From NCBI GenBank assembly GCA_015680685.1, contig MNCI01000651.1, positions 1,603,832 through 1,667,831 of the forward strand: a stretch of 64,000 nucleotides of DNA, read 5' to 3'. Both the position numbers and the translations under genes were made by a program. The notes under the pieces were generated by a model. The model saw only the letters and a program-made list of their open reading frames with translations, was not told where the DNA came from and searched no databases. Numbering within the stretch: position 1 is the first letter of the stretch; every line of letters starts with the position of its first letter. This DNA comes from Gnetum montanum (taxonomy: Eukaryota; Plantae; Gnetophyta). This document shows positions 14,711 to 56,482 of this stretch, in pieces.

Positions 14711-16244
14711 ATTGGGACTCCTGTATGTGGTAGACCTTCATGCAAATGGAGTAGGATGTGTTCCTTGCTATCCATTCACCAAGATGCTAAAAAAGAACAA
14801 GTTTTTCTTTGGAAACCACCATCATTAGTCCCAGTGAGTAGGAGAAACCTGAAATAGAGACTGAAAGAGTTACTAGAATGGATCTAGGAATTGACATCGG
14901 CATTGCATGTTGTAATGAACCCCTTACAGGGGTCACATGAATTGATGTAAAATATGGTGATCTAAATGGAGAAATGGGAGATGAAGGAGTGGCAGTTTGT
15001 TCAAAATCTACACCTACGGTATTATCTCTATCCATTTTCTAGATGAAGTACCTTCAACCTGTAGATCTACAATACAAAAAGAGAACATCACACAAGTAGA
15101 AGGAAGAAAAAGGCAAGTATTCGAACTTTAAAATTAATTAGATTTGCCTTTGGTTCCTTTCCTTTATCGTTTCTCATATCTTTTTTTTGGTACTTAAAAC
15201 TACTAGGCTAGTAGAACCTTGCCCAACATCTTACCTTTGAAAAAACAAAATTTATTAGAAAAACAAATATGCAAAGTAAAAAAATCAAGTGGGCTATTAT
15301 CTATATATATATATATAGACAAAAAATTTAGAGTTGGTAAGTTTGATTTATGCTTTGGACTAAACCCTTCCAAAGGATGAAGCACCTTGAACATCTTATG
15401 TTTGTGCACCTCCAATTTGTGCACTTTGGATTATTTCATTCTATAGCCTAGATTGCATTATTAATAAATACATGAAGAATAATAAGTAATAATAGAAATA
15501 TAAAATGTATAAACATATAAAAATACCTCACTAGTTCCCTCTTGATTTTGAGTCTATTGCAAAGCCATTTGACCCTTCTTGCCACCCTCGATTTTACTCT
15601 TTACAACTCTATCCTCTTTAAGAAATTTGGGATGTAAACTAGGATTTCAATGACTAAAAAGTTTAGTTGAAGGGTTGTAACTTAGGATTAAATACATGAT
15701 CAAGGGAATGCAACATATGGTATAAGGTTTATTATGATTTTTTTGGATAGCAGCAGCTTCATTCATGACATGGTACAAGGTAGAAAAACAAGACAAGGAA
15801 CGATTATAACTCTACCAATTTTGGCATGATGGAGGAAATAAATGGAATAAGCACTAACATAAGTCTAGTGTTTATGCCATAAGACCTTACTATGAATGAA
15901 TTGACACAAATCAAAGTGAATTTCATTAATCAGATCACCACAAAGGAATTGACTTTTGCTGTTGGTTGTGGTAGGACCTACCATGATGCTGCACAGTAGG
16001 GCTCGTAGGCCTTGTTGTGCAGTGATGTAGTTGGCCACTAACTAGCTCTAATGGCTAACAACCACAACATGCCATTAGGTCATCAAAACCCTTACCGTTG
16101 CCTGGCACTTCATCACCATGCTACTGCCACTATGCTACCTCTGCATAGGTGCTGCTCCCACTACTTCACCTCTACACACGCACCATCATCCATCCACTGC
16201 CCTCTGTACATATCGCTGCCTATGCATGAGCCATTTGTTAGCGC

Positions 16245-16895
16245 CATCCATAAAGGAAATATTTGATGCTCTGTAGGCACTGATAGTGCTACCCATAAAG
16301 GGCACCTTTGATGCTCTAAGAGTATGGATGGTGCTATTCATAAGGGCATCTTTGATGCTCCATGGCATTGATGGTGTCACCCATAAAGGACACCTCCTAC
16401 ACTCTATGGGCATTGATAGAATTCCTCATAAAGGACACCTCCAGCACTTTATGAGCACTAACAACTTTATCCATAAAGGGCACCTCTAGCACTCCATGAG
16501 CATTGATGATGCTGTCCATAAAGGGCACCTCTAGCGGTTTGCATTTATCAATAATTCCATCCATAAAGGACACCTCCAATGCTCCATGGGCACCGATGAC
16601 ACCATCCATAAAGGATAGCTTTGATGCTTCGTGGCCATTAATGATGCTGTCCATAAAGGGCAACTTTGATGCTTCATAGGCACTAACAATGTTGTTCATA
16701 AAGGGTACCTTTGGCGCTCTGCAGGCACCAACAATGCTATCCATAAAGGGCACCTTTGGTGCTTCGTGAGCATCAATGGTGCCATCCATAAAGGACACCT
16801 CTAGTGCTCCATAGGCATTGATAGCATTGCCCATAAAGGCCACTTTTGACACTCCATGGGTGTCAATAGTGCCATCCATAAAGGCTAGCATTGAT
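16245..16895. repeat. Tandem array of a 45-bp unit, about 15 copies
   Basis: CCATAAAGGRCACCT-type cores recur at 16426, 16471, 16516, 16561, 16606, 16651, 16696, 16741, 16786 and so on. The overlapping ORF shows 15-aa periodicity. Confidence 0.95.
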
Positions 16896-17481
16896 ACCCC
16901 TTGGCATTAGAAACCCTTACCACTGACACACACTATTTCTGCTAGTGCTGTGAGCCACAAAAGTCCCACTTGCTTTGCGTAGACCCTTGCATGAGGCACA
17001 CAAGCCCTGCTTGGGATCAAGAAAGTCCTTGGAAATCTATGTTGGCCTTGCACATGCCATGTTGGCCCCTTCGCAGGCTTTGCAAGCCATGCACAAGCTG
17101 CATAAGCCCTCACATGTGCCATGTGGTAGAGAGAGAGAATAAAAAACAACACTAATCTACTTTGCTCTAGGTTGCCTCTTAGACATTAATTTGCACTAGC
17201 TGATGATGATCTTCACCCAATGTCACTGATCTACTCTTGACACCACCACTAGCACATCATTGTAGCCATTGTTGCTAACATCCCTGCCTTGTTGCATGAC
17301 AAAAAAATTCTCCAACAACTAACAAAAGATTCAAAATCTTCATCAACTGACAGAAAATTCAAAATTTCCATCAACTAATGGAAAATTCAAAATTTCCATC
17401 TTTGAATTGTTAGTTTAAACTAAGAATGCAGAAAAGTAATTTAAAAAAATATAATTTTGCGCATTGGCAACATGTGAGATA

Positions 17482-17548
17482 AAAATTTTGTAATTAAGCA
17501 CACTTGTCTTGAAGTGTTACTGGGATGGATGACCTCTTGAGAAGTCTC
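17482..17548 (+). promoter_or_regulatory. 5S rRNA-derived Pol III internal control region (A box-IE-C box), copy 1
   Basis: AATTAAGCACACTTGTCTTGAAGTGTTACTGGGATGGATGACCTCTTGAGAAGTC aligns without gaps to recalled plant 5S AGTTAAGCGTGCTTGGGCGAGAGTAGTACTAGGATGGGTGACCTCCTGGGAAGTC. Confidence 0.78.
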
Positions 17549-17861
17549 AAAAATCATGTAGTTTTTACAAACTTAAAGTAGCCATAATTTTTGATTTTGG
17601 AGTCCATTTTCAACAAAAAAAAATGATTCTAATTGATTTGAACCTTGTAGACATGATGAAATGGTCAAATTTAGCTCTTAGATAATAGAAAATTAGTTTT
17701 AATCCATGATTTAGGATCCCAAAATAAATTAGAATTCCATGGTTGAATAGAAATTCATGATAGTTCTAACCTCCTCTAGTACCAATTAACTATCTTGAGA
17801 TCCATAATGAGGGCCATAGAGGCTAGGGATTGCCAACATGCCTAATTTCTTTAATTTACCA

Positions 17862-20800
17862 ATGTCTAGAACGTGAAGAATACATTGGAGATCAATGTAG
17901 ATCCAAGTCAATGACTAGGTGAATGAACTTAATGATCAAATTAATCAGATCAAGGGTATTCAAGAAGAGCTTCATCAGTCAAATCAAGGGCTCAAGATGG
18001 AGATGCAGAATATGTTCAAAGAAATTAGGAAATTATCCCAAAGTTTAGAATATAAATAGTTAGATGTGCAAGGAAAAATGGATTTCTTTGTAGAATCCAT
18101 CAAGCAATTAATCAACTATCTCACCCAGGCTTAAATTCTCAACCATGTTCTACCAAGGGATCAATGCCAAGATCAGTCCCCACATTATAGAGAATAAAAT
18201 CAAGATGAACTTCCCTCTAGGAATCTACATAGAAACCAACCCCCACATTTTGGACATTAAGATGCTAGTGTTCCTTCATTAGATTAAAAAATAGAAATAA
18301 AAGGTGAGGGATACTAGAATTGTCATAATGCACCCAGAGAGTCACTAACACAAGTTCATATTAAGAAGGTAAAATTAGATCATTATGATGGAGCCCCTAA
18401 ATCAAGTGCCAAGGCAAAAGATTGGCTTAATACAATGAAAAATTACTTTAATATGTTGAATCTGTCAAGCCAAGAATGTTTAGAAGTTATCTCCCTATAC
18501 TTAAGAGGAATTGCAACAACGTGATGGAATGGAATGAGATCTCAAGGTTTGATTACAAATTGGCTCAACTTTTGTTGAGATTTTGAACAAAAATTTGCAC
18601 CAAATTCTTTCCTTAAAGAGCACAAGATGAGATTTGATTCCTTAAGATTGGGATGGCGATCTATAGAAGATTACTACAAGGAATTGTGTGATCTCTCTTG
18701 ATATGTAAGCCATTGAGATAAGGGAGAGTTAGCTTCAAAGTTCATTGGTGGACTACATGCACAATTGTGTCCCAAACATGAGCATATAATCCTTAAATAA
18801 TTGATGAAGCCTATAGAATTGCTAAGGATTATGAAGAATTGAATCAAGTATGAACTATTCTTCGACAAGCAATGGTAGAAGAAACACTAATCAAGAGAGC
18901 TTGATTAGGATCAAGATGTCTTGCTTATGGCAAAGATCTTTTTAAATGAGACTATCCAGAATTGTGAGCAAAGGTACAAATAATCAATTAAAATAGGAAT
19001 TAAAAATCCAACTCAAACATGCATAAAGAAAAAATCAAAACCACCACCACAACTGTGAAGATGATTTCTACATCAAGTTAGGTTTGCAAAAATTTCAATT
19101 TTCTTTATTTATTTTTGAAGGTTCAATTAAAGGTAAAAAAGTAAATTTTTGATTGATAGTGGTGCGGGTGATAACCTTATTTCTCTAAAGTCAATTAAGT
19201 TATTGAAATTAAGTTTATGTTCCAAGGAAATTATTAAGGTAGAACTTATAGATGGAATGATTGTGAGTAAGCATACTAGGTATAGAGAAATCACCTTTAC
19301 TTTGTAAGACATGCCTTTTGTTGATGAATTTTTTGAATTTAAATTAGGTGATGTCAATGCAATATTAGATATATCTTCTACCCACTTTGAAAATCATCTT
19401 TTAAACGTGCCAACCACTAATAGAGTTAGGGTTTTACAGGGGGTACGAATAGCAAAGCAAATTCATACGATAATTATTAAACAAGCCAAGAGATTAGTCA
19501 AGAATGATGCTATGATGTTGATTGTCAAAGTAACTTGACCTTAGAAATCTTTAGGTATTGAGATTCCAAAAGAACTTAAGAAATATAAAGACTTAGTATT
19601 TGGTGAAATGAGTGAGCTACCTCCAAAAAGAAATGTTGAGCATGTTATTGATATTTCTCTTGGTGTACAACTTGTTTCAAAAGCCCCTTATAGATTTTCC
19701 ACTTTTGAATTATGAGAATTAAAAGTTTAATTAGATCAATTGTTGTAAGAAGGAAATATTTGACCTAGCATATCACCTTGGGGTGTATTAGTCTTATTCA
19801 TTAAAAGGAAAGATGATACGTTAAGATTATGCATCAATTATAGGGAATTGAATAAAGTAATGATTAAAAATACTTGTCCCTTGCCTAGGATCGATGACTT
19901 ATTTGAAAAACTTATAGGTAGATGTTATTTTTCAAAGATTGATTTAAAATCAAGTTACAACCAAATAAGGATTATGGAAAAAAAAAAAAAAGACATTGAG
20001 AAAATTGCATTTTGAGCTAGATATGAATTACATGAATTTGTAGTGATGGCATTTAGATTAACTAATACACCTACAATATTCACGGCATTAATGAGTAATA
20101 TCTTTGGTGAATACCTTGATCAATTTGCTATAGTATTTATGGATGATATACTTGTTTGCTCTAAGTCAAGAGAAGAAGATGTTAAACATTTAAAAATTAC
20201 AATGGAAGTCCTTAAAGAACATCTATTGAAAGAAAAATTAAGGAAATGTGAACTCTTTATAGAAGAAGTTTCATACTTAGGCCATATAGTTTCTAAGAAA
20301 GGATTACAAGTGGATCTAGCAAAAGTTAGTGCAATTCAGGATTGGCCATAACTAAAAGATGCCATAGCAGTTTGTAGTTTCTTAGGCTTAATAGGTTTTT
20401 ACCAATGTTTCATTAAAGATTATTCTACTTTGGTAGCCTCCTTGACTAACCTTTTGTAGGAAAAATATGTGTTTAAGTTTGATAAAAAATGTAGGGAAGC
20501 TTTCCTCAAATTAAAGATTCCACTCAGAATAGAACCTATTCTAAGAATTCCAAATGAAGAAATACAATTTGAAGTATCTATGGATGCATGTGGAATAAGA
20601 ATCGATGTAGTTCTTTCTCAAGAAGATGAAGTGGTATATTATGAATCTGGTAAATTGTGAGGAGTTGAGGTAAATTACTCAATCCATGATTTAGAGTTAT
20701 TGGTAATTGTTCATGCTTTGAAAGTTTGAAGATACTATCTTTGTGGAAAAAGATTTGTATTAAAAATACATTAGAAAAGTTTAGAATAATTGTAGAGAAA

Positions 20801-22350
20801 ACCTTTTTTGAATACTCGACAATGACGATGGGTAGAATTATTGGCTAAATATGATTTTGAAATCAAATATATTCCTAGAAAATAGAATGTAGTAGCTAAT
20901 GCCCTTAGTCAGATGTGGAACTTGATGATTAATTTTGTGAAAACTCCCATGGAAGAAGAAATTAAGGAAAAAATAAAAGAAGATCCTTACTTTTAAGAAT
21001 ATTTTAACTAATATTTCTTCTAAGCCTCATTATCAACTTGATCCTAACAGTTTATTGATGAAGAGACAAAGAGTGTGCATTCCAAAAGGAAATTGGAGAT
21101 TGAAGCTATTGTGTGAAGTTTAGGAAGTACCATATGTAGGGCATCTAGGATATATCAAGACTTATATGATGATATAAAATTTCTATTTTTAGCCTAGAAT
21201 GAAGAATGATGTATCCTTGTACATTAAAATCTGCCCAACCTACCAAAGAATAAAAGTTAAATAAAAGAAACCTAGTGGGTTACCATGGCCTTTAAAAGTC
21301 CCAACCTAGAAATGGGAAGACGTTACCATGGACTTCATTGTGGGATTGCCAACAACCAAAAAGGGAAATGATTCGATCTTAGTAGTGGTTGATCATCTAT
21401 CAAAGATGGTACATTTAATAGCTTTGAAATTTGCAACCATAACTGAAGAAGTAGCCTAGAAATTGATATGAGAAGTATTTTGATTACATTAAGTGTCCTA
21501 AATCTATCACTTCAGATTAGGGTCCCAAGTTTATATGTGCATTTTGGCAAACTTTCTTGAAAGAACTTGGAACCCAAATGAAATTTAGCATAACTTACCA
21601 CTTAGAGATAGATGGAGAAATCAAATTTCTAAAAACAATATTAGAATATATTCTATGAAGTTATGTTGGGAGGGAACCAAGGACATGGAAGAATTACTTC
21701 CACTTAGCAGAATTTGCCTATAATAATAATTATCAAGATTCCATACATCGAATGCCATTTACAGTGGTATATAGACATAATTGTCGCACATCACTAACTT
21801 GGGTAGATCCAACCTTAAGAACCAAATGGAAGAAGGAAGAAATGAAGACAATGGAAAATATTGTTACAAGAATTAAATAAAACTTACAACCTACCCAAGA
21901 AAAATATAAAGGATATGTGGACCAACATCGACTTGAGAAGGAATTCCAAGTGGAAGATCAAGTACTATTGAGAGTAAAATCCATTGGAAGTTTCCTTAAA
22001 TTTGAAAAATATACTAAGTTCGTTCTAAGATATTGTGGGCCCTTTGAAATCTTTGAAGGAATTGGTGAAGTAGCATATGGATTAAATACTCTGTCAAACT
22101 TAAGAATTCACCCAATTTTCCATGTAAGTTTGCTGAAGAAATTTTATGAAAATGATGTGCAATACATGCTAGATTGGAATACTTTGCCCTTGAGATCCAA
22201 TGCCAAGTTTGAGGTCAAACCAATTACAATTAATAATCACTAAACCAAGAAGCTTCAAAATAAAACTATCAATGAAGTACTTGTTCAATGGTCAAATTAT
22301 GATCAACAAACTTGGGAAAACAAGAAGTTCATTCTTAACACTTACCCCCA
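17862..22350 (+). pseudogene. gag-pol: gag-pol with C-terminal chromodomain, degenerate
   Basis: Gag AKDWLNTMKNYF; protease FLIDSGAGDNLIS (~19145); RT IVFMDDILV (20043-20351); [13 protein letters not shown] and RYCGPFEI..HPIFHVSLLKK; chromodomain-like KLQNKTINEVLVQWSNYDQQTWE (~22250-22320). Confidence 0.92.
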
Positions 22351-22564
22351 AATTTTTGATCATCATGATATTGAATGATAAATTGTATTTATTATTAAGG
22401 TAATAAATTATATTTTATAATTCTAGTCTTTTGTTTGTACAGATGATAAGGAGGATAATAATTAAGTTGAAGGTAAGGAGCTTAATTGAGGAAGTAGCAA
22501 CAACTGAGTAGTTGGATATAGAGGAAGCGCTCAAGGATGAGCTAGATGCTTAAAGGGGGTAGAT

Positions 22565-23058
22565 TGTGATGTCCCATCCCTTGTTAAGGGTGGAAATGTA
22601 TTATAAATAATATAAGAAACCTTCAAATGTAGGGGTGCCTCATTATGATGAGTTATGATTATATATGTACCCTACAGGAGTGGGTTTGACCTATTCCATT
22701 TAATGTCAGGTTTAGAGGTTGTGCTAATTATGGAGTTGCAAAGCCTAGAATGGTAAGTGATGGGAGCCAGGTGAATCAGGATCAGAAGGGATTGATCACC
22801 CCTTTGGCTGGATAGCCTAACCATGGTGGTAGTGTTGGATTGCCTCTAAGACTTAAGTGGCATGGGAAGATAACCCAGAGGGTGTTATAGTATACCACTC
22901 TAATTAATAAAATTTATCTATATTTTTCCTTCTCATTAGGTGTACTAGTTATTCATTTATCAAGTATTTTATGATATTTCCATTATAATGCTTACAAATG
23001 TGATGAATTAAATGATGAATGATCTTGTTTTTATGACATATGGAAATGGGATGTCACA
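22565..23058 (+). repeat. 3' LTR of the chromovirus (494 bp)
   Basis: TGTGATGTCCCAT..ATGGGATGTCACA terminal inverted repeats directly after the PPT. Shares blocks with the LTRs at 29628 and 34675. Confidence 0.9.
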
Positions 23059-29627: not shown

Positions 29628-30197
29628 TGTAATGTCCCCATTCCCAAATGATGCTGTTGCATAACCAAGATGGTGCCTCTTCATAAAGAGTGTTACTACT
29701 ATTGTAACAAGACCCAAAAGGATAGTTGTAATTAAGACCCTAAAGGGCACATTGTAATAACAAATGTGTCTCATAAGGTGACCTTTGGGGATTTGACCTA
29801 AGGTAGTTATATCTAGGCTTAGAGGCTTTTCCAGCATGGAGTGGTGGAGCCAGTACAGGCAAGTCATGAGAGCCAAGTGAAGTAGGATAGGAAGTGGATT
29901 GGCCATCCCTTTTGGTCAATTGTAGGCCTAATTTTGATGGTAGTGCTGGATTACCTCTAAGAAATAGATGTTAAAGGAAGAAAACCCAAGGCATACTCTT
30001 AGAGCATGATTTAGATACTCTATTCCATATGAATAAAGCATTCTTTTTTCTCTTTCTACATTTTTCTTATTATTTTCTTTATGCTTAATGTTGAATGTTA
30101 CATATATTTGACATTTGGTATATTTTCTTTTTAAGCATAATGTCTAATATCACATATATTTGACATTTTTGATGACATCCAGGAATGGGATGTCACA
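29628..30197 (+). repeat. 5' LTR of the CCR4-carrying element
   Basis: TGTAATGTCCCCATTCC..GGAATGGGATGTCACA, a direct repeat of 34675-35247. About 84% identical over the first ~140 bp by hand count. Confidence 0.93.
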
Positions 30198-30922
30198 ATT
30201 GCTACTGGAGAAAATCATGATCCAAGGGCCATTCAAAATCATGGGCCAACTAGAATGTGAATCGTATGATGAACCAAGAAGCCATGACATAGGGAAAGTC
30301 ATTAATCATCACTAGATGAACCTTATGTCTAAGGTGTAAGTCAGAAGATACATTGCCATTGATTTCATGAATAATGGAACAAGCATCTGCAAAATACATA
30401 GATCCCACCAACAAAATTCTTTCATGGATATCATAGACTGGTAAAGATATGATTACTCCTTATCAAGATTCATCAATTATAAGAAATTTGGTAAGACAAG
30501 GATACACCGCTCTAGGTAACTCTTACCCATCTTAATACCATAAATACTAATTAATTAAGGTCATCGTTAAGTTTCTTCCAAAACATTAGTGACCATGACC
30601 ATAGCTGAAATTAATCTTATTCTATTGAACTCATTATCCTAAGCAACTTAGAGTTATTTATAAGTTATCATGTCATCCATACATCAACCCAATAATGTTG
30701 TTTTGGTAGAATAAACTAGCTGGACCTTTCAAAATCTTGGAAACTTCAACTTTGCTTTTGAACCCTAAGACTATGTCTAACGCATAGAACTCATCAAAAG
30801 GATTCCAATGGTATAAATTTGTCTTGATTGGACTTATGGGTTGAAAGATATCACTATTTTAAGTTTCATTTTATGCATGCATTAAAATAATTTTTAATTA
30901 TTAAGTTATTATAAAAAAATGT

Positions 30923-30952
30923 GGGAGGTCATGGGTTCAAACCCAAGCTCCC
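30923..30952 (+). promoter_or_regulatory. tRNA T-arm/B-box-like hairpin
   Basis: GGGAGGTCATGGGTTCAAACCCAAGCTCCC contains GGTTCAAACCC (B-box GGTTCRANYCC type) inside a GGGAG..CTCCC stem. Confidence 0.4.
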
Positions 30953-31669
30953 TAGTTTAAATAGAGAAAAAAAGTAGTAGGGGCAGCACTATCCCTATTT
31001 GAGGGTTGCCTTTAACTGACACCATGCTTGTTTACCTAGAATAGCACCACCACCACCCAACATCGCTGACACTATGTCTTACCTTCTTCTTTGCCCATGC
31101 CACTTGCTACGCTCTTACTGACAGTGTTGCCCTACCTAGAGCCACCTATTGTGACACTATGTTTCTAACAGTGGTTGATGCCTACAACATAGCTTTTCCT
31201 GGCTATAACATAGTGTAACATAGAGGTGGTGATAGAAACTTCTGTGGTCTCCATTGCTACAAACTTTAGAAGAAAAAAATTGTAGGCTATGTAGACTTGC
31301 TAGGGCCACACTGCCACATAGCCTTGTAAAGGGCTGCATTGGTTGTTAGGGTCATACAAGTTTGTAGGGTTGATCATGTAGCCAATGCCAACATCATGAT
31401 CTGCACCCTTAGTTGCAATGATATCTACTGATTAATGCCATTTGCTACAAAACCCTCAACATTATGTAGTCCTTGCATGATACCATAGCCATTGTCTATC
31501 CCATGTCCTCACCTATGCCATTGAAACCCTTGCCACATTTCTCACCATTTGTTGTCTTCATTGGCACTTGTACTACTATTGTCATCGTCATTGATTGCAC
31601 AGCTACCAATGCCATTGCCTCCATCATTGTAAAAAAATCAACCATGATTTTTGCCTACCCATGATGTTC

Positions 31670-31945
31670 TCAAACACCAATGGTGCTTCCCATAATGGCC
31701 CATTTTGGCACTCTGTGGGCAATGATAGCAACACCCATAATGGCCTATTTTGCCACTCCATGGGTACCAATGACACTACCCATAACGGTCCATTCTAGTG
31801 CTTTGCAGGCATCGATTACACCATCCATAATGGCCCATTCCAATGCTCCGTAGGCATCAACGGTGTTGTCCATAATGGCCCCTTTTGATGTCCTGCAACT
31901 ACTGATGGTGCCATTGATAATGACCCCTTTCGGTGCCCTTTGGCC
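31670..31945. repeat. Tandem array of a 45-bp unit, about 6 copies, related to 16245-16895
   Basis: CCATAATGGCCC-type cores recur every 45 bp. Confidence 0.9.
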
Positions 31946-32577
31946 TGTAGAAAATCCTTGCTGAAAACATGTGTGTAGGCTTCCTTTATTTAGTGTAGCC
32001 CTTGCACAGGTTGTGTAGGCCTTGCTTTGGGCTCCCTAGGCTCTTGTGTGGGCTATGCAGATCCTTGTGTTGGCCCTACTTGGGGCTGTTCAGGTCCTAG
32101 GCATGGGATGCATTGGCCCCTATACGAGCTAAGTAGGCCCACATGTAGGCCATGATGGCCCCTATGTAGGTCCTCATGTGGGCCATGCAACTAGATACAA
32201 ACATCATCGCTGTGCCACACCAATATACTCTAATGCACCTTTGCTAGCCATTACTACCTTCTACCTCTTTGCATAACCATCCATCGCCATTGAACAAGAA
32301 CACTGCCAATGTTGAGTGCAAGCCAACACCATTGTGGAAATGTTTATCACCCCTGTATTTGCTTAATAATAGGAAAATTGTTCATCAACAGATGAAACAT
32401 TTGAATTTTTTAGTTAATTAGTGAAAAATTTGAAATTTCCATCAAGTAATAGGAAATTAAGATTCTCATTAGCTAACTAGAAATTAAAATTTCCATCTTT
32501 AAACCATTAATTTTAAATTAGGAACACAAGAAATTTTTTTTAAAAAAGAATTTGGTGCATTGGTAGCATGTGAGATA

Positions 32578-32650
32578 AAAATTTTGTAATTAAGTGTGCT
32601 CATTCTGGAGTAGAACTGGGATGGGTGACCTCTTAGGAAGTCTTTTTTTT
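32578..32650 (+). promoter_or_regulatory. 5S rRNA-derived Pol III internal control region, copy 2, followed by a T8 tract
   Basis: 32588-32642 matches the recalled plant 5S segment at 43/55 positions without gaps. The C box GGATGGGTGACC is perfect. Confidence 0.85.
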
Positions 32651-33128
32651 GTGCCAAAGGTTCTAGACTCTAGAAGCCATAACAATTGACTTTGAAAGCT
32701 TTTTTGAGCAAATGAAGAGTTTTTTCCTAAATTTTTTACCCTTCTAAACTTAATGATGAGGTTAGAATTTATCATCTGGGTACTTGAAATTTGATGATAT
32801 CATGAAACTATGCCCTAAAAGCCAAACACATAAGGATAACTAATCATGCCTTGTTGGGACTAACAATTTAACCTTATGGGCCTTGAGATCAAATGCTTAA
32901 TCTTTGCCTGTAGTCATAAGATCTCTATAGCATGTCATTAGTTACACTATCGGAGTTAGTATTCTTAAGAGAGGGGGGTGAGGGGTGGGAGGGAAGGTAG
33001 AAAGGTTATTAAGAAAGAAGTAATGTAGTAAATTATTTGGAGAATCAATTGATGTATTAGTTCAATGATCAAGAAGAATATATAGATACATCAATTCATC
33101 CTTCAACCAAATCATATGATAGAACAAC

Positions 33129-34265
33129 ATGGAGACTCAAAATCTCATTTTGACAAGGCGTATGATACCCATGAAGAGAAATTATTGAGAAGAGGATCCA
33201 AGATTGAGAATGAAAGTTGCAACATACAACATGCTTTCAAGATCCTTAGTGAGAGAGAAACAACATTTGCTATGTCCACCATGGACCTTGGATTGGCATG
33301 AATATTGATACCTATTGATCTAAACAAAGTTACAAGGATTGGATGTTGATGTTTTATGTCTACAAGAAGTTTTTCCATGAGAATTTTTATACCAATTCCA
33401 ACCAGACTTGGGAAAGATGGGATACATAGGTATTTATAAGCAAAAAGATTCTTGTGGAAATTCTTCTTTTGAATCATATAGATTAGCCTATTGTAGAAAT
33501 CACAACATGGATGTTTGTTCTATCTTTTATAAAGAATCCAAGTTTGAATTAGTACAAAGATTCAAAGGGAGTTTAGAAAATATGATTTTTGAAATTCTAG
33601 AACTTCAAACCATGGAAAAGAAAGAATAGTCAAGATTTTAGAAAAATCACATAGCCTTGAAAGTAATTCTAAATATCCATCTATCAGGGAGATGTATGTG
33701 TAGTCAATACACATTTGATTGCTAAAAAAACATGTGCAGATGTCAAACTATGTCAAGGAGCATACTTGATTAAGAAAATAGAAGAAAGTTTGAAGAATAA
33801 GTTATTCCTAGTGCCATTTGTTCTTTCTGGAGACTTAAATGCAAAAGTTGGAAGTAGTATTTATCAATTCATAAAATATGGATGTGTAAAGGAATCCTTG
33901 GGAGATGAACTTGATTTGAAGAAGATGTTTCTGTTTACTTTGAATGTTCAATAGATAAATCAGATTTTAGAATTCAAGAATAGATGATGTTGATGGATAG
34001 TACTCATCAAGAATCATACTTTAAGAATTACTCTATTGTGATTAATGAGGATGGAGCACCAACATTCTTCATTGAGATCTTAGATTATATTTGGTATGAT
34101 GTCCAATTCTTCCAAGTTACCATGTTACTTGAATTGATTTCTAGAGAAAAAATGAAGAAAAATCAAGATTAAGCCCTTCCATTCTAAACAAGATCATATG
34201 ATCATATACCACATATGGAAGAATTACAATTACTCCCATCAGTTCGTAAAGTTGACGAATATTAG
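33129..34265 (+). pseudogene. CCR4: Intronless CCR4/nocturnin-family EEP deadenylase (catalytic domain), disrupted by stops and two frameshifts
   Basis: Colinear motifs: KVATYNMLS, CPPWTLDW, DVDVLCLQEV, LGKMGYIGIYKQK, DVCSIFYKESKF, NHIALKVIL, VCVVNTHL, DVKLCQ, PFVLSGDLNAKVGSSIYQFI, ILDYIWY, ALP and SYDHIP. Confidence 0.9.
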
Positions 34266-34674
34266 GAAGTATGTCACTCTTTTATTGATGAATATTATTA
34301 TTTTCTTCGTTGTTTTATTTATATTTTAATTAGATAAATAAAATATCTAAGGTAATGAAAGTTGAAAATAAAGGATTTGCCCTACCTTCACTTGGATAAC
34401 CAGATTAAAGTTGCACTTGTGTGACCCTAGTTAGGATTGGTGGTTGGTAGATCTTTAATTCACCTCTTGTCATTAAGTATTAAGAAAGTAATATTTAATT
34501 TTCATATATTTTTCTTACTTGTGTGTTGTTTATAGAATAAGCAAGAAACAACTTCGATATCAAAAGGAGAAATCAAACTATTGGAGCATAGGAGCATGAC
34601 AGAAGTACTAGAGCTAGAAAAAGATAGTGAACATGGACTCGTTTGAGGATGAATGAAACCTAAGAGGGGTAGAT

Positions 34675-35247
34675 TATAACGTGCCCATTCCCAAACGATG
34701 TTGCTACATAACTAAGATAGTTTCTCTTCATAACAAGTGTTACTGTTATTGTAACAAGACCTAAAAGAGTAGTTGTAATTAAGACCTAAAAGGGAACACT
34801 GTAATAAAAAATGTGTCTCTCAAGGTGATCTTTGCAGATTTGACCAAAGGCATTTGTACTTGGGCTTAGAGGTTGTGCCAACATGGAGTGGCGGAGCTAG
34901 TACAAGCAAGTCACAAGAGCTATGTGAAGTGGGATAGGAAATGGATTGGCCATTCCTTCTAGTTGGTTGTAGGCCTAACGATGATGGTAGTGCTAGATTT
35001 TCTCTAAGAGATAGACATCAAAGGAAGAAAACCCCAAGGAATACTCTCAGAGCATGATCTAGCTATTCTATTCCATATCAATAAAACATTCTTTCCTCTC
35101 TCTTTCTACATTTTTCCTGTTATTTTCTTTATGCTTAATATCAAATGTTACATATATATGACATTTGGTATATTTTCTTTTTAAGCATAATGTCTAATAT
35201 AACATATATTTGACATTTTCCATGACATTTGGGAATGGGATGTCACA
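34675..35247 (+). repeat. 3' LTR of the CCR4-carrying element
   Basis: Follows the PPT, is a direct repeat of 29628-30197, and ends GGGATGTCACA. Confidence 0.93.
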
Positions 35248-39082: not shown

Positions 39083-42000
39083 TGTGGGAAAATGATCTAA
39101 AATTATTTTTGCATCTTTTTGCCAACATTGTGTTTATTTTGGATTCTTCCTCACTAATTTTGGTATTTTTCATGGCTGGCATGTTGTAAATTTATCAAAT
39201 TTAATTTAAGGAGGCTCATTGTTTTGGGGCTTTCCATGTTTAATCCTATTCCTAGCCTTATATATGTGTTCCTTTGGAAGGACCTTGGGCATCGGTGTGT
39301 GTGATTACAAAGTGTTATGAGCTTTTGTTGTTGGAGGAATTGTTGGTGGAAGTTTGGTGATCTGTTGGTGAAATGTTGGAGTTGTTGTATTATGGAGCTT
39401 GCTATTATCTCTCCCTTTCCTTTTCTACTACGAGAAAGGCAAATCCTCATTCTTGTGTAGTAGGCATATTGCCAAACCACATTAAATCTAGGTGTTCCTT
39501 TTGTATTGTTTGTTTTGGTTTGCATGTTATTCTTCATTGATTTCTTCTTGCACCATCACTATTGTGTTTTTGAGTTTTTTACATTTAGTTGTTTCACCAA
39601 CTCACCAAGTTTGGTTGGGCTTTGTTATTTTGCTACTATTTCATTCTATGCATCAATTGGTATTGAAGTGATAGTTATGTGAAACACTATTAGAATGGCC
39701 TCAAGACTTTCAAATGCAAAGTTTGAGGTGGAGAACTTCAACGGCAAGAATAACTTTGGCTTATGATAGAGTAAGGTCAAAGATCTACTCATTCAACAGG
39801 GCTTGCATAAGGCATTGTTGGGTAAGGTTAATAAGCCTATTAGTATGTTAGATGAAGACTGGGAAGATTTGGATAAGTCTTGTAGATCAAGTTTTATTCA
39901 ATGTGGCAAAGGAGGATTCTACTATTAGGTTATGGACTAAGCTGGAGAGCTTGTACATGATAGAGTCCTTGACAAATAAGTTGTATTTGAAGACAAAGCT
40001 CTATGAATTCAAGATGAAGGAAGATACGTCTATTGTAGATCATTTAAATGCTTTGAATAAACTCATTTGTCATTTTTCAAGCATCAAGGTTGAATAGGAG
40101 AGGAGGATTAGGCTCTTATTCTTCTTATGTCACTTCCAACTTCTTATAAACCTTTTGTTACAACACTACTCTATGGTAAGGACACCATAGAACTAGAAAT
40201 AGTGACTACAACTCTCTTGTTAGAAGAAAGGATAAATTCTACAATTGTAGAATAGACTGCTAAAGGTTTGATGGCTCGAGGTCATACCATGGAAAGAGGG
40301 TTTGAGAAATGTCCTTTTAGATGAAAGTCTAGATCTGGAAAGGACAACAAGAAGAATCTGGAATGCCATTATTTCTACAAGAAGGGGCATTTCATGAAGA
40401 AGTGTAGAAAGCTAAAGGAAAAGAAAGAAAACAAGCAAAAACATGAGGAGGCATCTAGTCCTAATAATAAAGAGGAGGTTAATACTATTAACATCGAAAA
40501 ATTAGAAGATGTTCTTGTAGCCACAAAATTATTTGAACAAGGTGAGTGGATTCTCAATTTAGGAGCTTTCATGACATATTACTCCTCACAAATCTTGGTT
40601 TTATACAAGTTGATGGCGGATCACTCCTAATGAGAATGTATGATGAAGTAAGAATTATGTATGTTGGCATGGTTCGAATGAAGTGTCAAGATGACACTAT
40701 TAGGACTCATATATGTGAAACATGTGTTGAAAATGAGGAGGAATCTCATCTCTTTGGGAGCTTTGGATGGATTGGGTTGTAATTTTGTTGGAGATAGTGG
40801 CTTTCTCAAAGTTAGTAGAGGATGCCTAGTAGTTTTGAAAGGTCACGAAGGAAGGAAACCTCTACAAGTTGCTGGGACATACAGTTGCTAGAGATGTGGA
40901 TGCATTTGATGGACACGTTGCTGCTACATCAATGTTATGGATAGACATTTGGGTCATGTTAGTGAGGATGGATTGAAAAAGCTCTTGGAGAATGTACTTC
41001 TTCTAGGTTTTTAGAAAATTGAGTATGACTTTTGTGAACATTGTATGTATGGTAAACAATGTAGAGTGAATTTTTCTCGTAGCACATTGAGAAGTAGAGA
41101 TGTGTTGGATTTGGTGCATAGTGATGTTTTGGGTCCTTCTCCTCAACCATCTTTGGGAGGTGCATGATACTTCATCACCTTCATTGATGATACATCAAGA
41201 AAGGTATGGGTTTTTCCTCTTAAAGGTAAATCAGATGTTTTTCAAAAGTTTATGGAATTTAAGGACCATGTAGAAAGAAGTACTAGAAAGAGGGTTAAAT
41301 GTATTTGAATAGATTATGGTGGTGAATACATCCCTAAAGTATTTGAGTCATTTTGCAAATATGAAGGTATTAGAAGATATCTTACAATTCTAGGTACTCC
41401 TCAACAAAATGGAGTTGCAGAAAGAATGAACCATACACTTTTGGAACATGCTAGGATCATGATGAGTTTTGTGGGAATGAACAAAGTCTTTAGGATGGAG
41501 GCAATTAACACTACATGTTACTTGGTGAAACAAACCCCATCTCTTGCTATTAATGGCAAGATTCTAGACAAGGTGTGGAGTGGAGTTTTAGGAAAATATG
41601 AACATCTTAGAATCTTTAGTTTTTTAGCATATGCTCATGTTCTAGACATTCAAAGAAGCAAGCTTGATCCAAAATCCAAGAAATGTGTCTTTCTTGGATA
41701 TGTAGAAAATACCAAAGGATATAGGCTTTAGGATCTTGATTCAAGAAAGGTCATCTTCAGTAGGCATGTCATCTTCAATGAGTCATCCATTCAGCAAGGT
41801 GACAACAAGGATGAAAATGAATGAAGCTAATGTAGAGAAGATGCTTAAGTCAAAATGAAGACTTTTAGAAATGACGATGAGAAGAAGAATGAAGAGGTAT
41901 CACAACAATGGAAGCTTGGTGATACAAAGATTGAGCTAAGTATCCAAAACCTCATGTTGAGCCTAGAAGCTCTTCAAGACCTAACAAGGATATGTTGGTA

Positions 42001-44233
42001 GTCAGGTATGATGATGAGTATGCATTTCTATCATTGATTGTAGAAGTAGATGAGCCAATTTCTTATTAAGAGGCATTGAAGAGTGGCCAATGTAAGAAGT
42101 GGCAAGCTTCTGTGGAGGAGGAAATGCACTATCTTTTGAAGAATCGAACATGGGATTTAGTTAAGCTTCCTAAAGGAAGGAAAGCCATAGATTACAGTTG
42201 GTTATATAAGGTAAAGCATGCAACAATTGGACAAGTTGATTACTTTAAGGTAAGGTTGGTTGCCAAGGGTTATCTTCAAAATTTTGGAATAGATTTCTTT
42301 GATGTGTTTACACCAGTTGCAAAACTTGCAACCATTTGAGTTATTTTGGTGTTAGCTATTGTGGAAGATCTTGAGTTAGAGAAAATGGATGTTTGAACAA
42401 CCTTTTTACATGGAGATCTCTAAGAAGAAATCCACATGAAGCAACTAGAGGCATTTGTGGTTAAAAGAAAAGAAGATCTAGTGTACAGGCTCAGGAAGTC
42501 CCTCTACAATTTGAAGTAAAGTCACAGATAGTGGTACAAGAGGTTTAATTATTTCATGTGTAAGATTGGTTTCTAGAAGAATCCTACAGATCCTTGTGTG
42601 TACAATTACAAGTGTGCATATAGTACTATTGTGAATTTGATCTTATATGTGGATGATATGAATATTACAGGAAATAATAAGGCTAAAATTAAGAAGTTGA
42701 AAGAGCTTTTATCTTCAGAATTTGATATGAAGGATTTAGAAGAAGCCAAACAGATTCTTGGCATGGATGTCACTCGAGATAGAAAAGAGAGGAACTTGTG
42801 GTTATCTCAAGAGCAATACATCAAGAAATTTTTTCAAAGGTTCAGAATGTAAGGTGCTAAACTAGTTAGTAATCCTATTAGTATGCATTTTAGATTATCT
42901 TCTCAGCAATGCCCAAAGATTGAAAAAGAAGAGGTAGATATGTCTCGAGATCTTAACTCCAATATTGTTGGTAGTTTGATGTATGTCATGGTGGAAACAA
43001 GACTAGAAATTGCATATGCAATAGGTCTTCTTAGTAGATACATGAAAAATCCTAGCAAGAAGAATTAGGAGCAATTTAGTGAATCCTTCATTACTTGAAA
43101 GAAACATCCAAATTCTGCATTTGCTATAATAAACTTAGAAATACTATTATACATTATTGTGATTCAGATTTTACTGATGATCTAGATAAAAGAAAGTCTA
43201 CATTAGGTCATGTGTTCACCATAGCTAGAGAACCTATTTCATGGAAGTCAAAGCTGCAATTGGTGATGGCCCTACAACAATGGAAGTAGAATACATTGCT
43301 ACTTCATTAGCATGCAGCGAAATTATTTGGTTGATGAATCTCATGGAAGGATTGGGACAACATCAAGCAAAGATATCATTGTTAAGTGATAGTTAGAGTG
43401 CTATTTTATTGGCACATAATTTAGCCTTGCATGAAAGGTCCAAACACATCCAAGTAAAGTATCATTTTGTGTGGTAGCTAATTGTTGAAGGATGTGTTCT
43501 TTTTAAGAATATTTCTACTTTGATAAATCCAGTAGACATGCTAACAAAGAAACTTTAGTTGGAGAAGTTCAATGATGTTTGCACTTTTTTCCACTTCTGT
43601 AAGAATAGTTGAATAGTTGGGGATTTTCTGTAGAAAGGAATTTTGGCTCAAGCTGGAGATTGTTAGGAAATGACCCAAAATTATTCTTGTGTCTTTTTGC
43701 CAACATTGTGTTTATTCCTAATTCTTCCACACTAATTTTGGTATTTTCTATGGTTGGCATGTTGTAAATTTATCAAATTAAATTTAAGGAGGCTCACTGT
43801 TTTGGGGCTTTCATGTTTAATCCTATCCTTAGCCCTATATATGTGTGTGTTTAGAAGAACCTTGGGCATCGATGTGTGTGATTACAAAGTATTAAGAGCT
43901 TTTGTTGTTGGAGGAATTGTTGGTGGAGTTTTGACAATCTATCAATGAAATGTTGCAGTTGCTGTATTGCGAAGCTTGTTGTAATCTCTCCCTTTCCTCT
44001 TCTACTCCAAGAAAGGAAAATTCTCATTCTTGTGCAGTAGGCCCATTGCCAAACCATGTTAAATCTAGGTGTCCCTTTTATGTTGTTTTCTCCTATTTGC
44101 ATATTATTTTCCATTGATTTCTTCTTACACCATGGCCATCATGTTCTTAAGTTTTTTTGCAGTCATTCAGTTCACCAACTCACCAATTTTGGCTAGGCTT
44201 TGTCCTTCTACTATGATTTCGTTCTACGTATCA
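39083..44233 (+). mobile_element. Complete Ty1/copia retrotransposon (Tnt1/Tork-like), decayed
   Basis: LTRs 39083-39655 and 43661-44233 (TG..CA); PBS TGGTATTGAAG at 39658; PPT-like tract before 43661; TSD GTGGG/ATGGG (4 of 5). Confidence 0.95.
39695..43600 (+). pseudogene. gag-pol: Copia gag-PR-INT-RT-RH polyprotein, degenerate
   Basis: KFEVENFNGKNNF, SLTNKLYLK, RSKLDPKSKKCVFLGY, RLVAKGY, LYVDDM, YCDSDF..DLDKRKST. Confidence 0.95.
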
Positions 44234-44519
44234 ATGGGCTACCTGATGAAAGGTAGCATGTTGATGGGCCTGCGTGGACCTCTTTTAGGTGCTACAACAA
44301 TTTTAATATATATATATAGCTATTAGTTGGAAATCATGTTGATTTTTTTATATACCTACATATTAGTAAATAGAGGAAGAGATGGGAAAGAAGAGATTGT
44401 CATGTGGCTTAATTGATTAACTGATACAAATATAGTATTGAACAAACATGGATGTAATGATGTGTTGAAAAATATTGATTTATTTTTTTATTATTTTATT
44501 TGAATTTTATCATGTGCAA

Positions 44520-45687: not shown

Positions 45688-45843
45688 AAGCTCAAGAGAT
45701 TCAGGCACATCTTCCAATGCTAGGCATCATATATCTCCTAACTCTTATCTACATGTAGGGTACTTGTTGTGAACTCTGGACTTATAGCTAGAGCACAAGG
45801 TATAGCCATTATGACACTAGTGAATAGGAGGGTACATGGAATT
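45688..45843 (-). pseudogene. SINAT: Fragment of a SINA/SINAT RING E3 ubiquitin ligase
   Basis: NSMYPPIH*CHNGYTLCSSYKSRVHNKYPTCR*ELGDI*CLALEDVPESLEL versus SINAT NSMYPPIHQCHNGHTLCSTCKSRVHNRCPTCRQELGDIRCLALEKVAESLEL. Confidence 0.93.
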
Positions 45844-47195: not shown

Positions 47196-47200
47196 GTCAA

Positions 47201-49716
47201 CCATTAAAATATTAAATTTATCATGCGTTGCTGTAATGGGATGTTCAAGAAAAAACTTAGTGGCCATGGCATGACACATGGTGTTGATTCAAGCTTTAGA
47301 ACCTTAAAAAAAGGATTCCAATAGTGCCATCATCTCGGATCTATTGACCTTTAGGATTAAACCCTCACATCCTTAAGAAGTAATATTGGCATCCATGGCC
47401 TAGGTAACTTGAACATAACTCATATGTATGGTAGATTTGGTGTTAGGGTTGCAATGGCCATGTGCATTGAAGTATGGATTTTAGCAAGTTTAATGGAATA
47501 GTCCATGAGGATCATTTCATAGAGCACCGGGCTCATCTGAGAATTAATACTCTTGGATTCATGGCATTCATGGCCGTTGACAATGACACATTTACAAGGA
47601 ATCTGCTACTACAAAGTTTCTTCATCCACAAAATCCTTGACATCAATGCACTTGGAACACTTGTGCTACGTACCTTGGATGAGCTTCAATGTGTTTCTAT
47701 ATGTTAGTATCTTAGCAGAGGTCATCATGGAAAATCATGATGGAAATGTGCAGAGGCTTGGTGGATGATTACTTGTCAATGATGATGCTCACATTGGCAA
47801 TGAAGATGATGTTGTTTTCTTTGATCTTTCATGTTGCAAAGTGGTATTGGAAAACTTAATTAAAAATTATGCACCACTACGCTCATCATAGAGGCAGAGA
47901 TGAAGTCACGAATAAGTGGTCAGTACCTTGCAGAGGCATGTGGAGTTAATGGAATATGTTGCAAACACATCATGCTTGCTTCTTGGTAGTTTGGTCATGT
48001 TTACTTTTGTGTTTTACACCCATGATTTTTTCCATAATATTATGATTTTACATTCCATACATTTGTATTAAGGTTTTGGTATGGAGTTATAAAATGACCA
48101 AAAAATAATAATCATAAAATGAAACTATGATATAAAATAGAAGGATAATAAAATATAATAAATAAATTTGAAAAATGAAGTTTAGATTGAGGGAACATAT
48201 GTAATAAACCATAGGTTGGCTATCTTGCATTTGTATCTGGGTGACCTAAAATTGAAGAAGACACCTTGAATTAGAGTTAGCTTTGCTTTAAAGGCTTAAA
48301 TTATGTTTTTCCCCATAGGAAGATATATTATAAGGGTTGATGTGCTAAAAATGGTGAACTCATATTAAGGATAGAGCCTCAAGAATATTAGGAAAAATAA
48401 AATAGAAGATTTATAAGTTAGTTATTGGACAAGACACTTGCCAACTATGGCTTAAATTTCTCATAGAAGTTATAACTTCTTAGGATGGTTATGCATTAAT
48501 CCCCTAGATATTTGTAACATTCTTAATGTCTCATGATGATTATAACTACCCTAATGCCACTATAAAAGGAGCTTCAAAGATAGAATTAGAGGAGGATTTG
48601 GGGGGAAAAGATACTTGAAAAAATATTGAAGATTGTAAAGCATGGCTTGCTAAAGACATCAATTCCGCTACTTTGTCTTAATCCTTTGAGTTTATTTCTT
48701 CCCATTTTGTTTTAGTTACTTAGCTAATGGTTTAGATAGTATTGTGCTTGGCATTTAATTTTTGGATTTTCTAGGTTTCTTTTATAGCTCTCCTTTTTGT
48801 AAAATATTAGACTTCTATTAGGTTTTCCATATAAGAGCTTATGTTATATTAGAAAAACATCTTGAGCAATTTAATAGTAATGAATTATAGAAATTGCTTG
48901 TTTGAGTCTAGGGAATTAAGAGAATCTTTAATACTTTGTAATGACTGGAATAACTTTATTTCTTTTAAAGTTTATTATCTTAATATTTCAATCTTAAAAT
49001 TGTTAAATTTTTTTGGAAGTTCTAGTGTTTGTAATTCTTGACCGATATTAACTAGCCAAATAGAAGCTTGTATTTTGTCATTTAGAAACGATTTTGGTAG
49101 TTAAATAAGAGTGTCTTTTATGAAATTGCTTATTGAGCTTAGAGGGTTTGAATGATTCATAATAGATTGAATTGGAATAGCTTTATTACAAAGTCTTTCC
49201 TCATGTCAATTTATCTTGCTTAAATGTTTAAGATTCTACATAAATTTACTTTTTTTGTTTGAAATCCATTGAATCTCACTCTATTTCTAGTTTTCTTGTG
49301 AAACTTTTTCTTTGGGGGAAATTAGGAGTAGATTGGCAGAATTGTGCTCAAGTATTTTTGTGAAATTATATTTGTTTCAAGTAATGTACTATAGGGACTA
49401 TGTAGACTAAGTGATTCAACAAAATAGGAATCTTCAACAACTCGTAGTATTTGAAAAAGCTAGCTGAATTTCTTTTATGATAGCCAATTACATTTTCATT
49501 TATAAATCCAATCATTTCAACATTCATAACAACAAACACATACTCATTATTAGTTCATTTCATAATCATTGAGTTTATTTAGAGGTATCTTGGCCTTGGT
49601 GTTGCCAGAACACTAGCAAGCACTGAAACCTTGTTTGATGAACACCTTCACATTCCATGATCCCAAAGTCATGAGATTAGAGGCACCCATGCATTAGTAG
49701 TCCAAAATGGCTAACA
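47201..49716 (+). repeat. 5' LTR of the Tat element, lacking its first ~300 bp
   Basis: Colinear with 56781-59274 and ends GGCTAACA before the PBS. Confidence 0.9.
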
Positions 49717-50084
49717 ATAGTTTTTTTGGTGCTAGAAGGAGGGCAAGAAACTTTGTTGCACAAAAATAGTTCATTATGTTCAAAGAGATTTATAGTTCTT
49801 GCACAACAATAGTATTTTTCATTGTTAGGAGAGCTTGAAAGAATTCGCTAGTATATTGAGTTAATGATCGAATAGACTAGTACTTTAGAATATTTATAAT
49901 TTTATGGTCATAAGTTTTATTATTCATTAGAAGAAGAATAGAAAAAGGTTCTTGAGTTTGGAACAAGTAGTGAAGTAAAAACTAGAAGAATAAAGAGAAC
50001 ACCTTTTTTTTTGGTTTATTAGTCTATAAGAGAAGGCCGAAGAAATATAAGAGTTCAACAATCAAAAGAAATTCTAGTAAAATT

Positions 50085-55380: not shown

Positions 55381-55424
55381 CTTTGGGCAACCACCCACAA
55401 TTTAATATATATATATGTGACCAA

Positions 55425-55435
55425 NNNNNNNNNNN
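55425..55435. other. Assembly gap (11 N)
   Basis: Run of N. Confidence 1.
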
Positions 55436-56482
55436 GAGGTAGGAGTATTAGTTAAATTAGAGTGTTAGTTGAAAATTTAAATTTACATTATCTCAGGTAA
55501 TCATTAATTGTTATGTGTGTTAACTACACTTTAGTGGGATTAGTGCTTTGGATAACCACATAATGTAAAATTAGTTTACAACTAATACATAATGGAAATT
55601 AATTTTATCAACTGTATGATGGTGGGAAGTAAATAAGTTTTGGTTGAGTAAGAAAGTTGGTTATTTGGATGGTGGGAATTTCATATTTTTTTGCATTATA
55701 TAAAGAGTTGTAGTTTGCTTGAAAAGACATCTTCCAATTCAACACTTGAGCAAGAAAAGCATTTTTAGTTTGAGGTAGAAAGTGAGCTTAAGAAAGATGG
55801 CAGTGAGAAGGCCTTTTATTTCTTATGTGACTGGCTGCTATCTAGAATATGTCATGAGAGTGTTGTGCAAGGCAATTGCTCATGGTGCATTATATGAAAG
55901 TCCATTTTTACTTTGGCTTTTGGATGAAATTAGCTTTCTCACCAGTGGATGCTCCATCCATTCAAATGTTTGGGGTTGTTTCCACCAATGCACCATTGAA
56001 GTTGACCACCAAGGAGAGTCCAGTCAAGATGATTCTTAGGGAGAGGTTTTCATGTCTCAAGATACATAAACAATTGGGTATGAAGAACCTTAAAAATTAG
56101 CAACCAAGGATCAAATGAGAAAGAAACAAATACAGTTGTTGGAAACAATGGTGAAGAAGATCGAGTTGAAGCTCTAATGAGGTAAGAAGAATATGTAGGA
56201 ATTAACAACATGAGGATCCCTAAAAGGGTTATCGTAACTATTCTTTTCCCTCCTACTAAATTGTTTGTATAAGGCTATTTTTGTATAGTTTCCTTATTTT
56301 ATAGGGGTGAGATTTTTATATTGTCATACCTTATGTTTGATGGAAATCTTCCTTAAAAAAGATTTATGGTTTTGTAAAAATGTTCAATAGATCCCTATTT
56401 TGGTGATGATTTAGTTGGTGTACATTGTTGAATTATCTTAAACATCTTAGGTTTTAAAGAAATTTAAGAAAGGGAAAAGAAA

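Follow-up and report, generated by a model that had tools for sequence, protein, structure and literature searches.

Why does a long terminal repeat (LTR) retroelement enclose a nuclease gene in place of gag and pol, and does such a gene serve the element or merely ride along? The question is raised by positions 29628-35247 of a 64,000-nucleotide stretch of Gnetum montanum DNA, called the window below (GenBank assembly GCA_015680685.1, contig MNCI01000651.1, positions 1,603,832 to 1,667,831, forward strand). An initial annotation had described the locus as an LTR retroelement with a CCR4/nocturnin-type deadenylase as its cargo. Our analysis suggests that it belongs, as a decayed member, to a non-autonomous LTR family of high copy number, in which a CCR4-type nuclease gene replaces gag-pol and was likely kept by selection in the element lineage, and which would have been moved by a related chromovirus. 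We put the probability of this reading at roughly 0.55. Coordinates are those of the window; features lie on the plus strand unless stated otherwise.

The outline of the element agrees in part with the initial annotation. A 5' LTR of 570 bp (29628-30197, TG..CA ends) and a 3' LTR of 573 bp (34675-35247, TA..CA ends) are 85% alike: 486 of 570 columns are identical, with 62 transitions, 22 transversions and two indel events (Kimura two-parameter distance 0.168). A polypurine tract (PPT), AAGAGGGG, is found at 34662-34669 and resembles that of a neighbouring element. Neither gag nor pol was recognised: a Pfam scan of 30200-33132 in all six frames gave no family, and the gag/pol of the neighbour, used as query against the element, found no remnant (best E 0.51). 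The proposed primer binding site (PBS) is weak. Family contigs extending beyond the LTR end start with a PBS-like motif, but the remnant in this copy (30200-30210) matches the tRNA-iMet PBS motif at just 7 of 11 positions. It is followed by a 5' internal non-coding region (30211-30987), which is repeated in the genome at a depth below that of the cargo and has no Pfam match; a 3' untranslated region (UTR) occupies 34266-34661. With paired LTRs, a PPT, no gag/pol and multiple copies, the element fits a non-autonomous LTR retrotransposon.

The cargo (33129-34265) consists of three frame segments, which were placed by tblastn with 166 homologues. Segment 1 (33129-33689) contains the motifs YN-L, CP-W-L-W, LQE and KNHIAL and six stops; segment 2 (33697-33951) contains NTHL, DVKL-Q and GDLN and no stop; segment 3 (33984-34265) contains LDYIW, LLELI and DH and two stops ahead of the final one. 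The frameshifts lie near 33690 and within 33952-33983. Over 365 codons there are thus eight in-frame stops; a ninth lies at the junction (33952). Hence the reading frame of about 1.1 kb that had been proposed is indeed intronless and spans the whole EEP domain, but it is broken by two frameshifts and 8-9 stops. The motifs follow in the expected order (YN-L, CP-W-L-W, LQE, NTHL, DVKL-Q, GDLN, LDYIW, DH).

Among solved structures the cargo matched, in this order, CNOT6L (E 3e-13), nocturnin (5e-12), yeast Ccr4, CNOT6, PDE12 and Angel2. A search of 1.84 billion protein representatives gave 614 matches at E <0.001, the best 150 of which are 23-41% identical over the matched stretches; PF03372 was present in all 50 representatives scanned. 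Where a listed match has a name from its source, this is either generic or one of CCR4-1/2, CNOT6 and poly(A)-specific ribonuclease. The assignment to the CCR4/nocturnin/Angel branch is narrowed to CCR4 proper, with plant-type signature motifs. The endonuclease (APE) of long interspersed nuclear elements (LINEs) was absent from the 12 solved-structure matches, and none of the 10 best representatives that were looked up bears its name, CCR4 proteins being the best matches; behind the domain come a stop, the 3' UTR and the LTR. A LINE endonuclease was therefore rejected. Other searches contributed little: NCBIfam gave no family for the three segments, a protein atlas search gave a single EEP lead (0.88) for one piece of the cargo, and none of 293 candidates passed in a word-based homologue search. 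In metagenomes and viral sequences, segment 2 matched seven loci: six clamp-loader-type ATPases, hit by chance, and one distant EEP protein.

The cargo protein begins at the linker ahead of the nuclease domain. Nine N-terminal queries revealed no zf-MYND or leucine-rich repeat (LRR) remnant upstream of it, and no Pfam match. Judged from its sequence, the cargo is a CCR4-type EEP nuclease that comprises the catalytic domain only. Passages of PMC7105381 and PMC12557515 describe that plant CCR4 contacts CAF1 via zf-MYND. Because this domain is absent, a role as CCR4-NOT subunit or as CAF1/NOT decoy is unlikely, and the decoy function considered in the initial annotation is weakened.

It is less clear which substrate such an enzyme would have had. 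Eight of the ten EEP active-site residues, as listed for human CCR4a in a part of PMC8216464, are retained; a Thr and a Ser position are altered in this decayed copy. In addition, an HWDP-type loop is not retained. Segment 2 alone matched Angel2 best (E 4e-7) and also PDE12, and no CCR4 structure; for segments 1 and 3 nocturnin (48.5 bits) comes close to CNOT6L (52.6 bits). One could thus imagine a functional cargo with an Angel-, nocturnin- or PDE12-like activity, acting on 2',3'-cyclic phosphate, NADP(H) or the 3' ends of tRNA primers, all the more since CCR4-family proteins without zf-MYND have other activities according to a passage of PMC12557515. We regard this as improbable, given that CP-W-L-W, KxNIAL, DVKL-Q and LLEL are CCR4-type motifs and that the named matches listed are CCR4-1/2, CNOT6 and poly(A)-specific ribonuclease, next to generic names.

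Is the cargo a singular event? The stretch or a part of it is present in 17 of 24 listed sequencing runs, which carry six species labels. Four runs under four species labels were aligned to the stretch at 80% likeness, yielding 42,870, 51,936, 46,988 and 64,323 contigs, most of them 80-95% alike. In all four, the LTRs, the cargo and the 3' UTR are covered at high depth without a gap. Across most of 30988-32253 the depth is about 10 or less; runs X1 and X2 have zero-difference contigs there and therefore contain this very locus. The cargo depth exceeds that of this unique middle 3,463-, 3,836- and 2,633-fold in three runs, whereas the ratio of the fourth run, which lacks the locus, is not meaningful. 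Contig depth does not measure copy number, so these values are read for their order of magnitude alone, and since it cannot rank parts, the depth of the cargo above its flanks is not counted as selection. Per run, 68-127 contigs cover 10 of the 11 listed cargo sites and 17-28 the last one, against 0-3 in the unique middle. The summed depth of the LTRs is 1.3-2.7 times that of the cargo, where about 2 would be expected if the cargo were a regular part of the family. No contig spanning both cargo and LTR was found among the aligned contigs. Among 12 of the 13 rows of differences at a 30% share there is no indel inside the cargo; either the frameshifts may be shared, or gaps may have been called poorly in short contigs.

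These data show that the cargo belongs to a high-copy family, found under four species labels, and is not a one-off. The insertion itself is old: near-identical contigs cover the junction of the 3' LTR with its flank under two additional species labels (X2 record 16, X7 record 22), and hence it predates the split of those labels. That a processed pseudogene derived from host CCR4-1, or what is left of a LINE endonuclease, happens to lie between two solo LTRs would be in line with the near single-copy middle of the element and with the flanks, GATAT and ACTGT, which do not match as a target-site duplication (TSD; P about 0.025 under decay alone). Yet this explanation is very improbable. It does not account for the gap-free high depth of cargo, 3' UTR and LTR in every aligned run; none of the 12 structures matched is an APE and none of the top representatives looked up is named as one; and uniform decay of the cargo is rejected, as shown below. 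The missing TSD may mean that the two LTRs derive from two copies by recombination. In that case their divergence may date the family rather than the insertion. At the gymnosperm rate of 2.2e-9, taken from a part of PMC13477047, it corresponds to about 38 million years, conditional on host and rate.

The damage to the cargo can be explained by decay after insertion, since stops and frameshifts fit the expectation scaled to the LTRs; the enzyme was thus likely still intact close to the time of insertion. Off-frame and shuffled controls have 31 stops, compared with eight per 365 codons in the cargo frame. Forward simulation at half the LTR divergence gave 3.0-5.5 new stops (95% upper bound 7-10) and about 15-16% residue change; the pol of the neighbouring element contains 21 stops in 707 codons. 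From the LTR pair about two indels per 1.1 kb are predicted, and the cargo has two frameshifts.

What the protein looked like before this decay can be read from its conserved columns. The cargo keeps 33 of 41 columns that are at least 90% conserved in 135 homologues, a count mildly inflated because the homologues were picked by their likeness to the cargo. In columns less than 30% conserved, it agrees with oak CCR4-1 at 14 of 99, and overall at 101 of 319 (32%). Retention differs strongly between invariant and variable columns (Fisher p 8e-14), and uniform decay is rejected (P 2e-10). The far divergence from plant CCR4 with surviving motifs, as initially annotated, is thereby confirmed, and as conserved columns were kept and variable ones lost, it appears to have arisen under purifying selection. 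The pattern supports an enzyme that stayed under this constraint until roughly when the burst took place. The further claim that it was selected as retroelement cargo stands only in its first half: purifying selection is apparent, but an element and a diverged host paralogue are not separated as the place of this selection. The codon make-up, with GC1/2/3 of 0.40/0.26/0.29 in the cargo and 0.40/0.28/0.26 in the neighbour's pol, is a weak sign of long residence in the element, partly explained by shared decay.

Selection in the element is favoured by the lack of a near donor. CCR4-1 of Ginkgo, Araucaria and Ceratopteris is 32-33% identical to the cargo. The Ginkgo, Araucaria and fern proteins are 77-91% alike among each other and at least 74% alike to those of Chlorokybus or Psilotum. 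No near donor appeared, none of the best 150 matches of the 1.84 billion representatives exceeding 41% identity. In trees built without Angel or nocturnin sequences, 52 rows chosen from 136 place the cargo on the non-LRR side (support 100/100), on a branch of length 3.1 and as sister to an unnamed CCR4 clade (85/72). FastTree with all 136 rows left it unplaced within that side, and approximately unbiased tests with 31 rows rejected no placement (p 0.13 for LRR-type, 0.055 for land-plant CCR4-1, 0.76 for the unnamed clade). The plant-type signatures RRMI and LLEL are present in the cargo; LLEL occurs in 25 of 27 plant sequences, in 9 of 9 of the unnamed clade and in 0 of 39 LRR-type sequences. 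Of the diagnostic columns, six favour the LRR type against two, with six neither. Motifs thus favour a plant-type donor, and diagnostic columns lean to the LRR type.

The unnamed clade comprises the diverged plant-type CCR4s P0172, P0170, P0169, P0021, P0002, P0014, P0167, P0168 and P0171. Its members are about 50% identical to CCR4-1 in the nuclease domain, have no Pfam zinc finger and occur in Logan, JGI and ENA records, with up to 40 members per cluster and often as fragments on metagenome contigs of 10-40 kb. They are 33-37% identical to the cargo and supply the three top matches of the set; in diagnostic columns the cargo agrees with them six times, with canonical plant CCR4-1 once and with neither 17 times. 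P0172 resembles CCR4-1 in the atlas search, and viral scans with P0172 and P0169 found nothing. The clade could itself be repeat-borne.

The existence of this clade, which lacks an intact zinc finger, is sister to the cargo in the 52-row tree and scores best against it, lends substance to the strongest alternative: the cargo would be a mere passenger, that is, a fast-evolving intronless host CCR4 paralogue, selected as a host gene, captured once shortly before the burst and of no help to the element. This alternative fits with the very common capture of gene fragments in gymnosperms, conifers included, as described in parts of PMC13477047, which gives it a higher prior. However, even the nearest clade is just 33-37% identical and no donor exceeds 41%, the cargo holds a whole catalytic domain and not a fragment, and its composition equals that of retroelement pol. 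We therefore consider a passenger rather unlikely, though far from negligible.

Apart from this prior, several points weigh against the preferred reading. The evidence for selection is drawn from a single fully read copy, and no intact copy was seen; the choice of homologues and the shared decay mentioned above act in the same direction, as does the lack of a TSD. Poly(A) specificity is not assured, because two of the ten residues and the HWDP loop differ and segment 2 matches Angel2 best. Finally, Arabidopsis CCR4a shortens and destabilises transposable element (TE) RNA (in parts of bioRxiv 2023.03.23.533991 and PMC12501189) and promotes RDR6 small interfering RNAs (siRNAs; in a part of bioRxiv 2024.08.23.608929). 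Since host CCR4a thus suppresses retrotransposons and feeds RDR6 siRNAs, an extra deadenylase could harm its carrier. Either the element RNA would have to be protected, or the enzyme would have changed its substrate.

A possible scenario for the preferred reading, a nuclease selected as element cargo, is the following. A CCR4 mRNA fragment would have been captured long ago without the zinc finger that binds CAF1. Gag and Pol of a helper would have packaged and reverse-transcribed the element RNA in trans, and the enzyme would have been a free Mg-dependent nuclease of RNA 3' ends, working apart from CCR4-NOT. The copies would have decayed neutrally following a burst, which dates to about 38 million years ago if the gymnosperm rate holds. 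The benefit that we favour is the clearance of polyadenylated host or helper RNAs which compete for Gag. This is a conjecture by analogy with BYSMV (barley yellow striate mosaic virus), a plant rhabdovirus for which host CCR4 serves to remove cellular mRNA from the N protein (in a part of PMC7105381). Even provided that the cargo was functional, such a role would have distinctly less than an even chance. As a precedent, BYSMV and barley CCR4 illustrate that CCR4 activity can aid a parasite by removing mRNA from nucleocapsid protein; the virus, however, recruits the host enzyme through zf-MYND and encodes none. A role in cross-silencing of host CCR4 by siRNAs was also considered and appears unlikely at a protein identity of 32%.

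A bolder version, which we hold tentatively and at somewhat less than even odds, is that a host anti-transposon enzyme became the only gene of the lineage: a NOT-independent CCR4 nuclease, selected across subfamilies, would have driven the burst that left thousands of copies. In that case there may still be intact relatives, and the clade of P0172, P0170, P0169 and their kin may represent this cargo elsewhere among plants.

The type of helper is suggested by the neighbouring element, a decayed Ty3/gypsy chromovirus at 16233-23058 with arrays, a 5S-like piece, gag, protease, reverse transcriptase (RT), RNase H, integrase, a chromodomain remnant, PPT and LTR. Its 5' LTR lies outside the window; the other LTR (22565-23058) shows 62% likeness to each of the cargo element's two LTRs (E 1e-23 and 2e-21). 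The 3' ends also resemble each other (34467-34675 and 22383-22565; score 60, the highest of 300 nulls being 56). In both elements an array of 45-bp units, repeats of 28 bp and a 5S-like piece directly precede the coding region. The order protease, RT, RNase H, integrase and a chromodomain are found in the neighbour but not in the cargo element; the neighbour also has an SH3 domain, and its Chromo match (E 2.6e-4) is below the curated cut-off. By these resemblances the neighbour is likely related to the helper, although the distance is too great for it to have been the helper. Between the two elements, the far 5' regions are not significantly alike (P 0.56 and 0.35). A fusion of the cargo start to a gag leader, suggested by likeness, was not significant (P 0.08). 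An arrangement in which captured host sequence replaces replication genes and a helper moves the element, as in the cargo element, is familiar from maize Bs1 and transducing retroviruses. Bs1 carries gene fragments and, to our knowledge, no RNA-decay enzyme.

How does the cargo element compare with other plant elements? Closest in kind are Phalaenopsis Ty3/gypsy elements with an AlkB N6-methyladenosine demethylase, described in parts of PMC9289625. There, too, an enzyme of host RNA metabolism became fixed in a plant gypsy lineage as an additional gene, and a role against control by the host has been proposed for it. Those elements are 25 kb long and autonomous, with a recent host-like domain of shown activity, whereas here an EEP enzyme about 32% identical to host CCR4-1 replaces gag-pol in a dead copy. 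No EEP or CCR4 domain is named among extra LTR domains in the domain-screen section of that paper, which used RT as marker and covers angiosperms only. Screens of this kind begin at RT and thus miss the cargo family by design. Large retrotransposon derivatives and other non-autonomous LTR elements, as treated in a part of PMC13570524, likewise exceed 4 kb, have LTRs and a PPT, lack gag/pol and resemble an autonomous partner, and they have a PBS, of which this copy shows a weak remnant; in contrast to the strict definition, which demands a non-coding interior, the cargo element contains a whole host-type enzyme domain. Other extra reading frames and non-autonomous families appear in parts of PMC11963269 and PMC13570524.

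With plant CCR4a/b (CCR4-1/2) and human CNOT6/6L the cargo shares the EEP domain, eight of ten active-site residues and the CCR4 motifs; unlike them it lacks zf-MYND and LRR, sits on a very long branch (3.1), is intronless and is broken. The gene fragments captured by gymnosperm TEs are similar in that host coding sequence is carried and co-amplified by an LTR element. Those in the relevant parts of PMC13477047 were found by DNA likeness to living donors, though, while the cargo has no close donor and shows selection at the level of motifs. CCR4 is absent from the text and two supplements of PMC13477047, where deadenylation appears only in two Gene Ontology (GO) rows. Its Table S37 gives an enrichment of the GO term deadenylation-dependent decay among processed pseudogenes of Cryptomeria (13/922).

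We found no report of a CCR4-carrying LTR element in the open-access literature. Among plants, the cargo family would be the second case that we found in which an RNA-fate enzyme became fixed in an LTR element. If so, an element-encoded CCR4-type nuclease would be a move at the protein level in the conflict between host CCR4a and retrotransposons, in which Evade evolved an RNA structure resisting host CCR4a (parts of bioRxiv 2023.03.23.533991 and PMC12501189). The thousands of copies make it directly testable whether the captured gene serves the element or rides along.

Some further features of the element concern its 5' half. Within 30988-32464, a GC-richer stretch that is near single-copy at 80% likeness, lies the decayed 45-bp tandem array (31650-31945, with 6-7 units); its second copy in the neighbour (16233-16884) has about 14 units, and the array at 16397-16906 reads on the minus strand as an open repeat frame of 169 codons. 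The 28-bp units follow at 32397-32467 (second set at 17298-17424) and the 5S rRNA-like fragment at 32551-32659 (second at 17472-17562). Because array and 5S-like piece are near single-copy in contig depth, this block could be a separate repeat inserted in both elements. The matches to Rfam RF00001 are weak and below the gathering score (E 0.11 and 0.81); contigs covering the 5S-like region run on into a 5S-like 3' end. Both pieces lie in the 5' internal part, directly upstream of the cargo or of gag, and are best kept at GGATGG-TGACCTC. A role as RNA polymerase III promoter is possible. In Cassandra, a terminal-repeat retrotransposon in miniature, the 5S-derived sequence lies within the LTRs; the piece found here is internal and outside the LTRs, and membership was rejected. 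A tRNA-like piece near 30920 had no Rfam tRNA match. By eye, both 3' UTRs (22383-22445 and 34467-34530) contain an AT-rich, short-intron-like stretch with GT..AG ends.

The window as a whole has 34% GC and contains several old LTR elements; CpG reaches 0.14 and CHG 0.34 of the expected frequency. It reads as part of a large, heavily methylated plant genome, likely that of a gymnosperm. Of the two host-derived fragments proposed besides the cargo, FANCM gave no match in a scan with five motifs, but a decayed SINA/SINAT RING-zinc finger fragment is present at 45700-45840 on the minus strand (SIAH1, E 8e-5). Two more LTR pairs, of about 570 bp (39083-44238, 83% alike) and about 2.5 kb (47199-59278, 84% alike), enclose integrase-like and protease/RNase H/RT-like frames and are of similar age to the cargo element.

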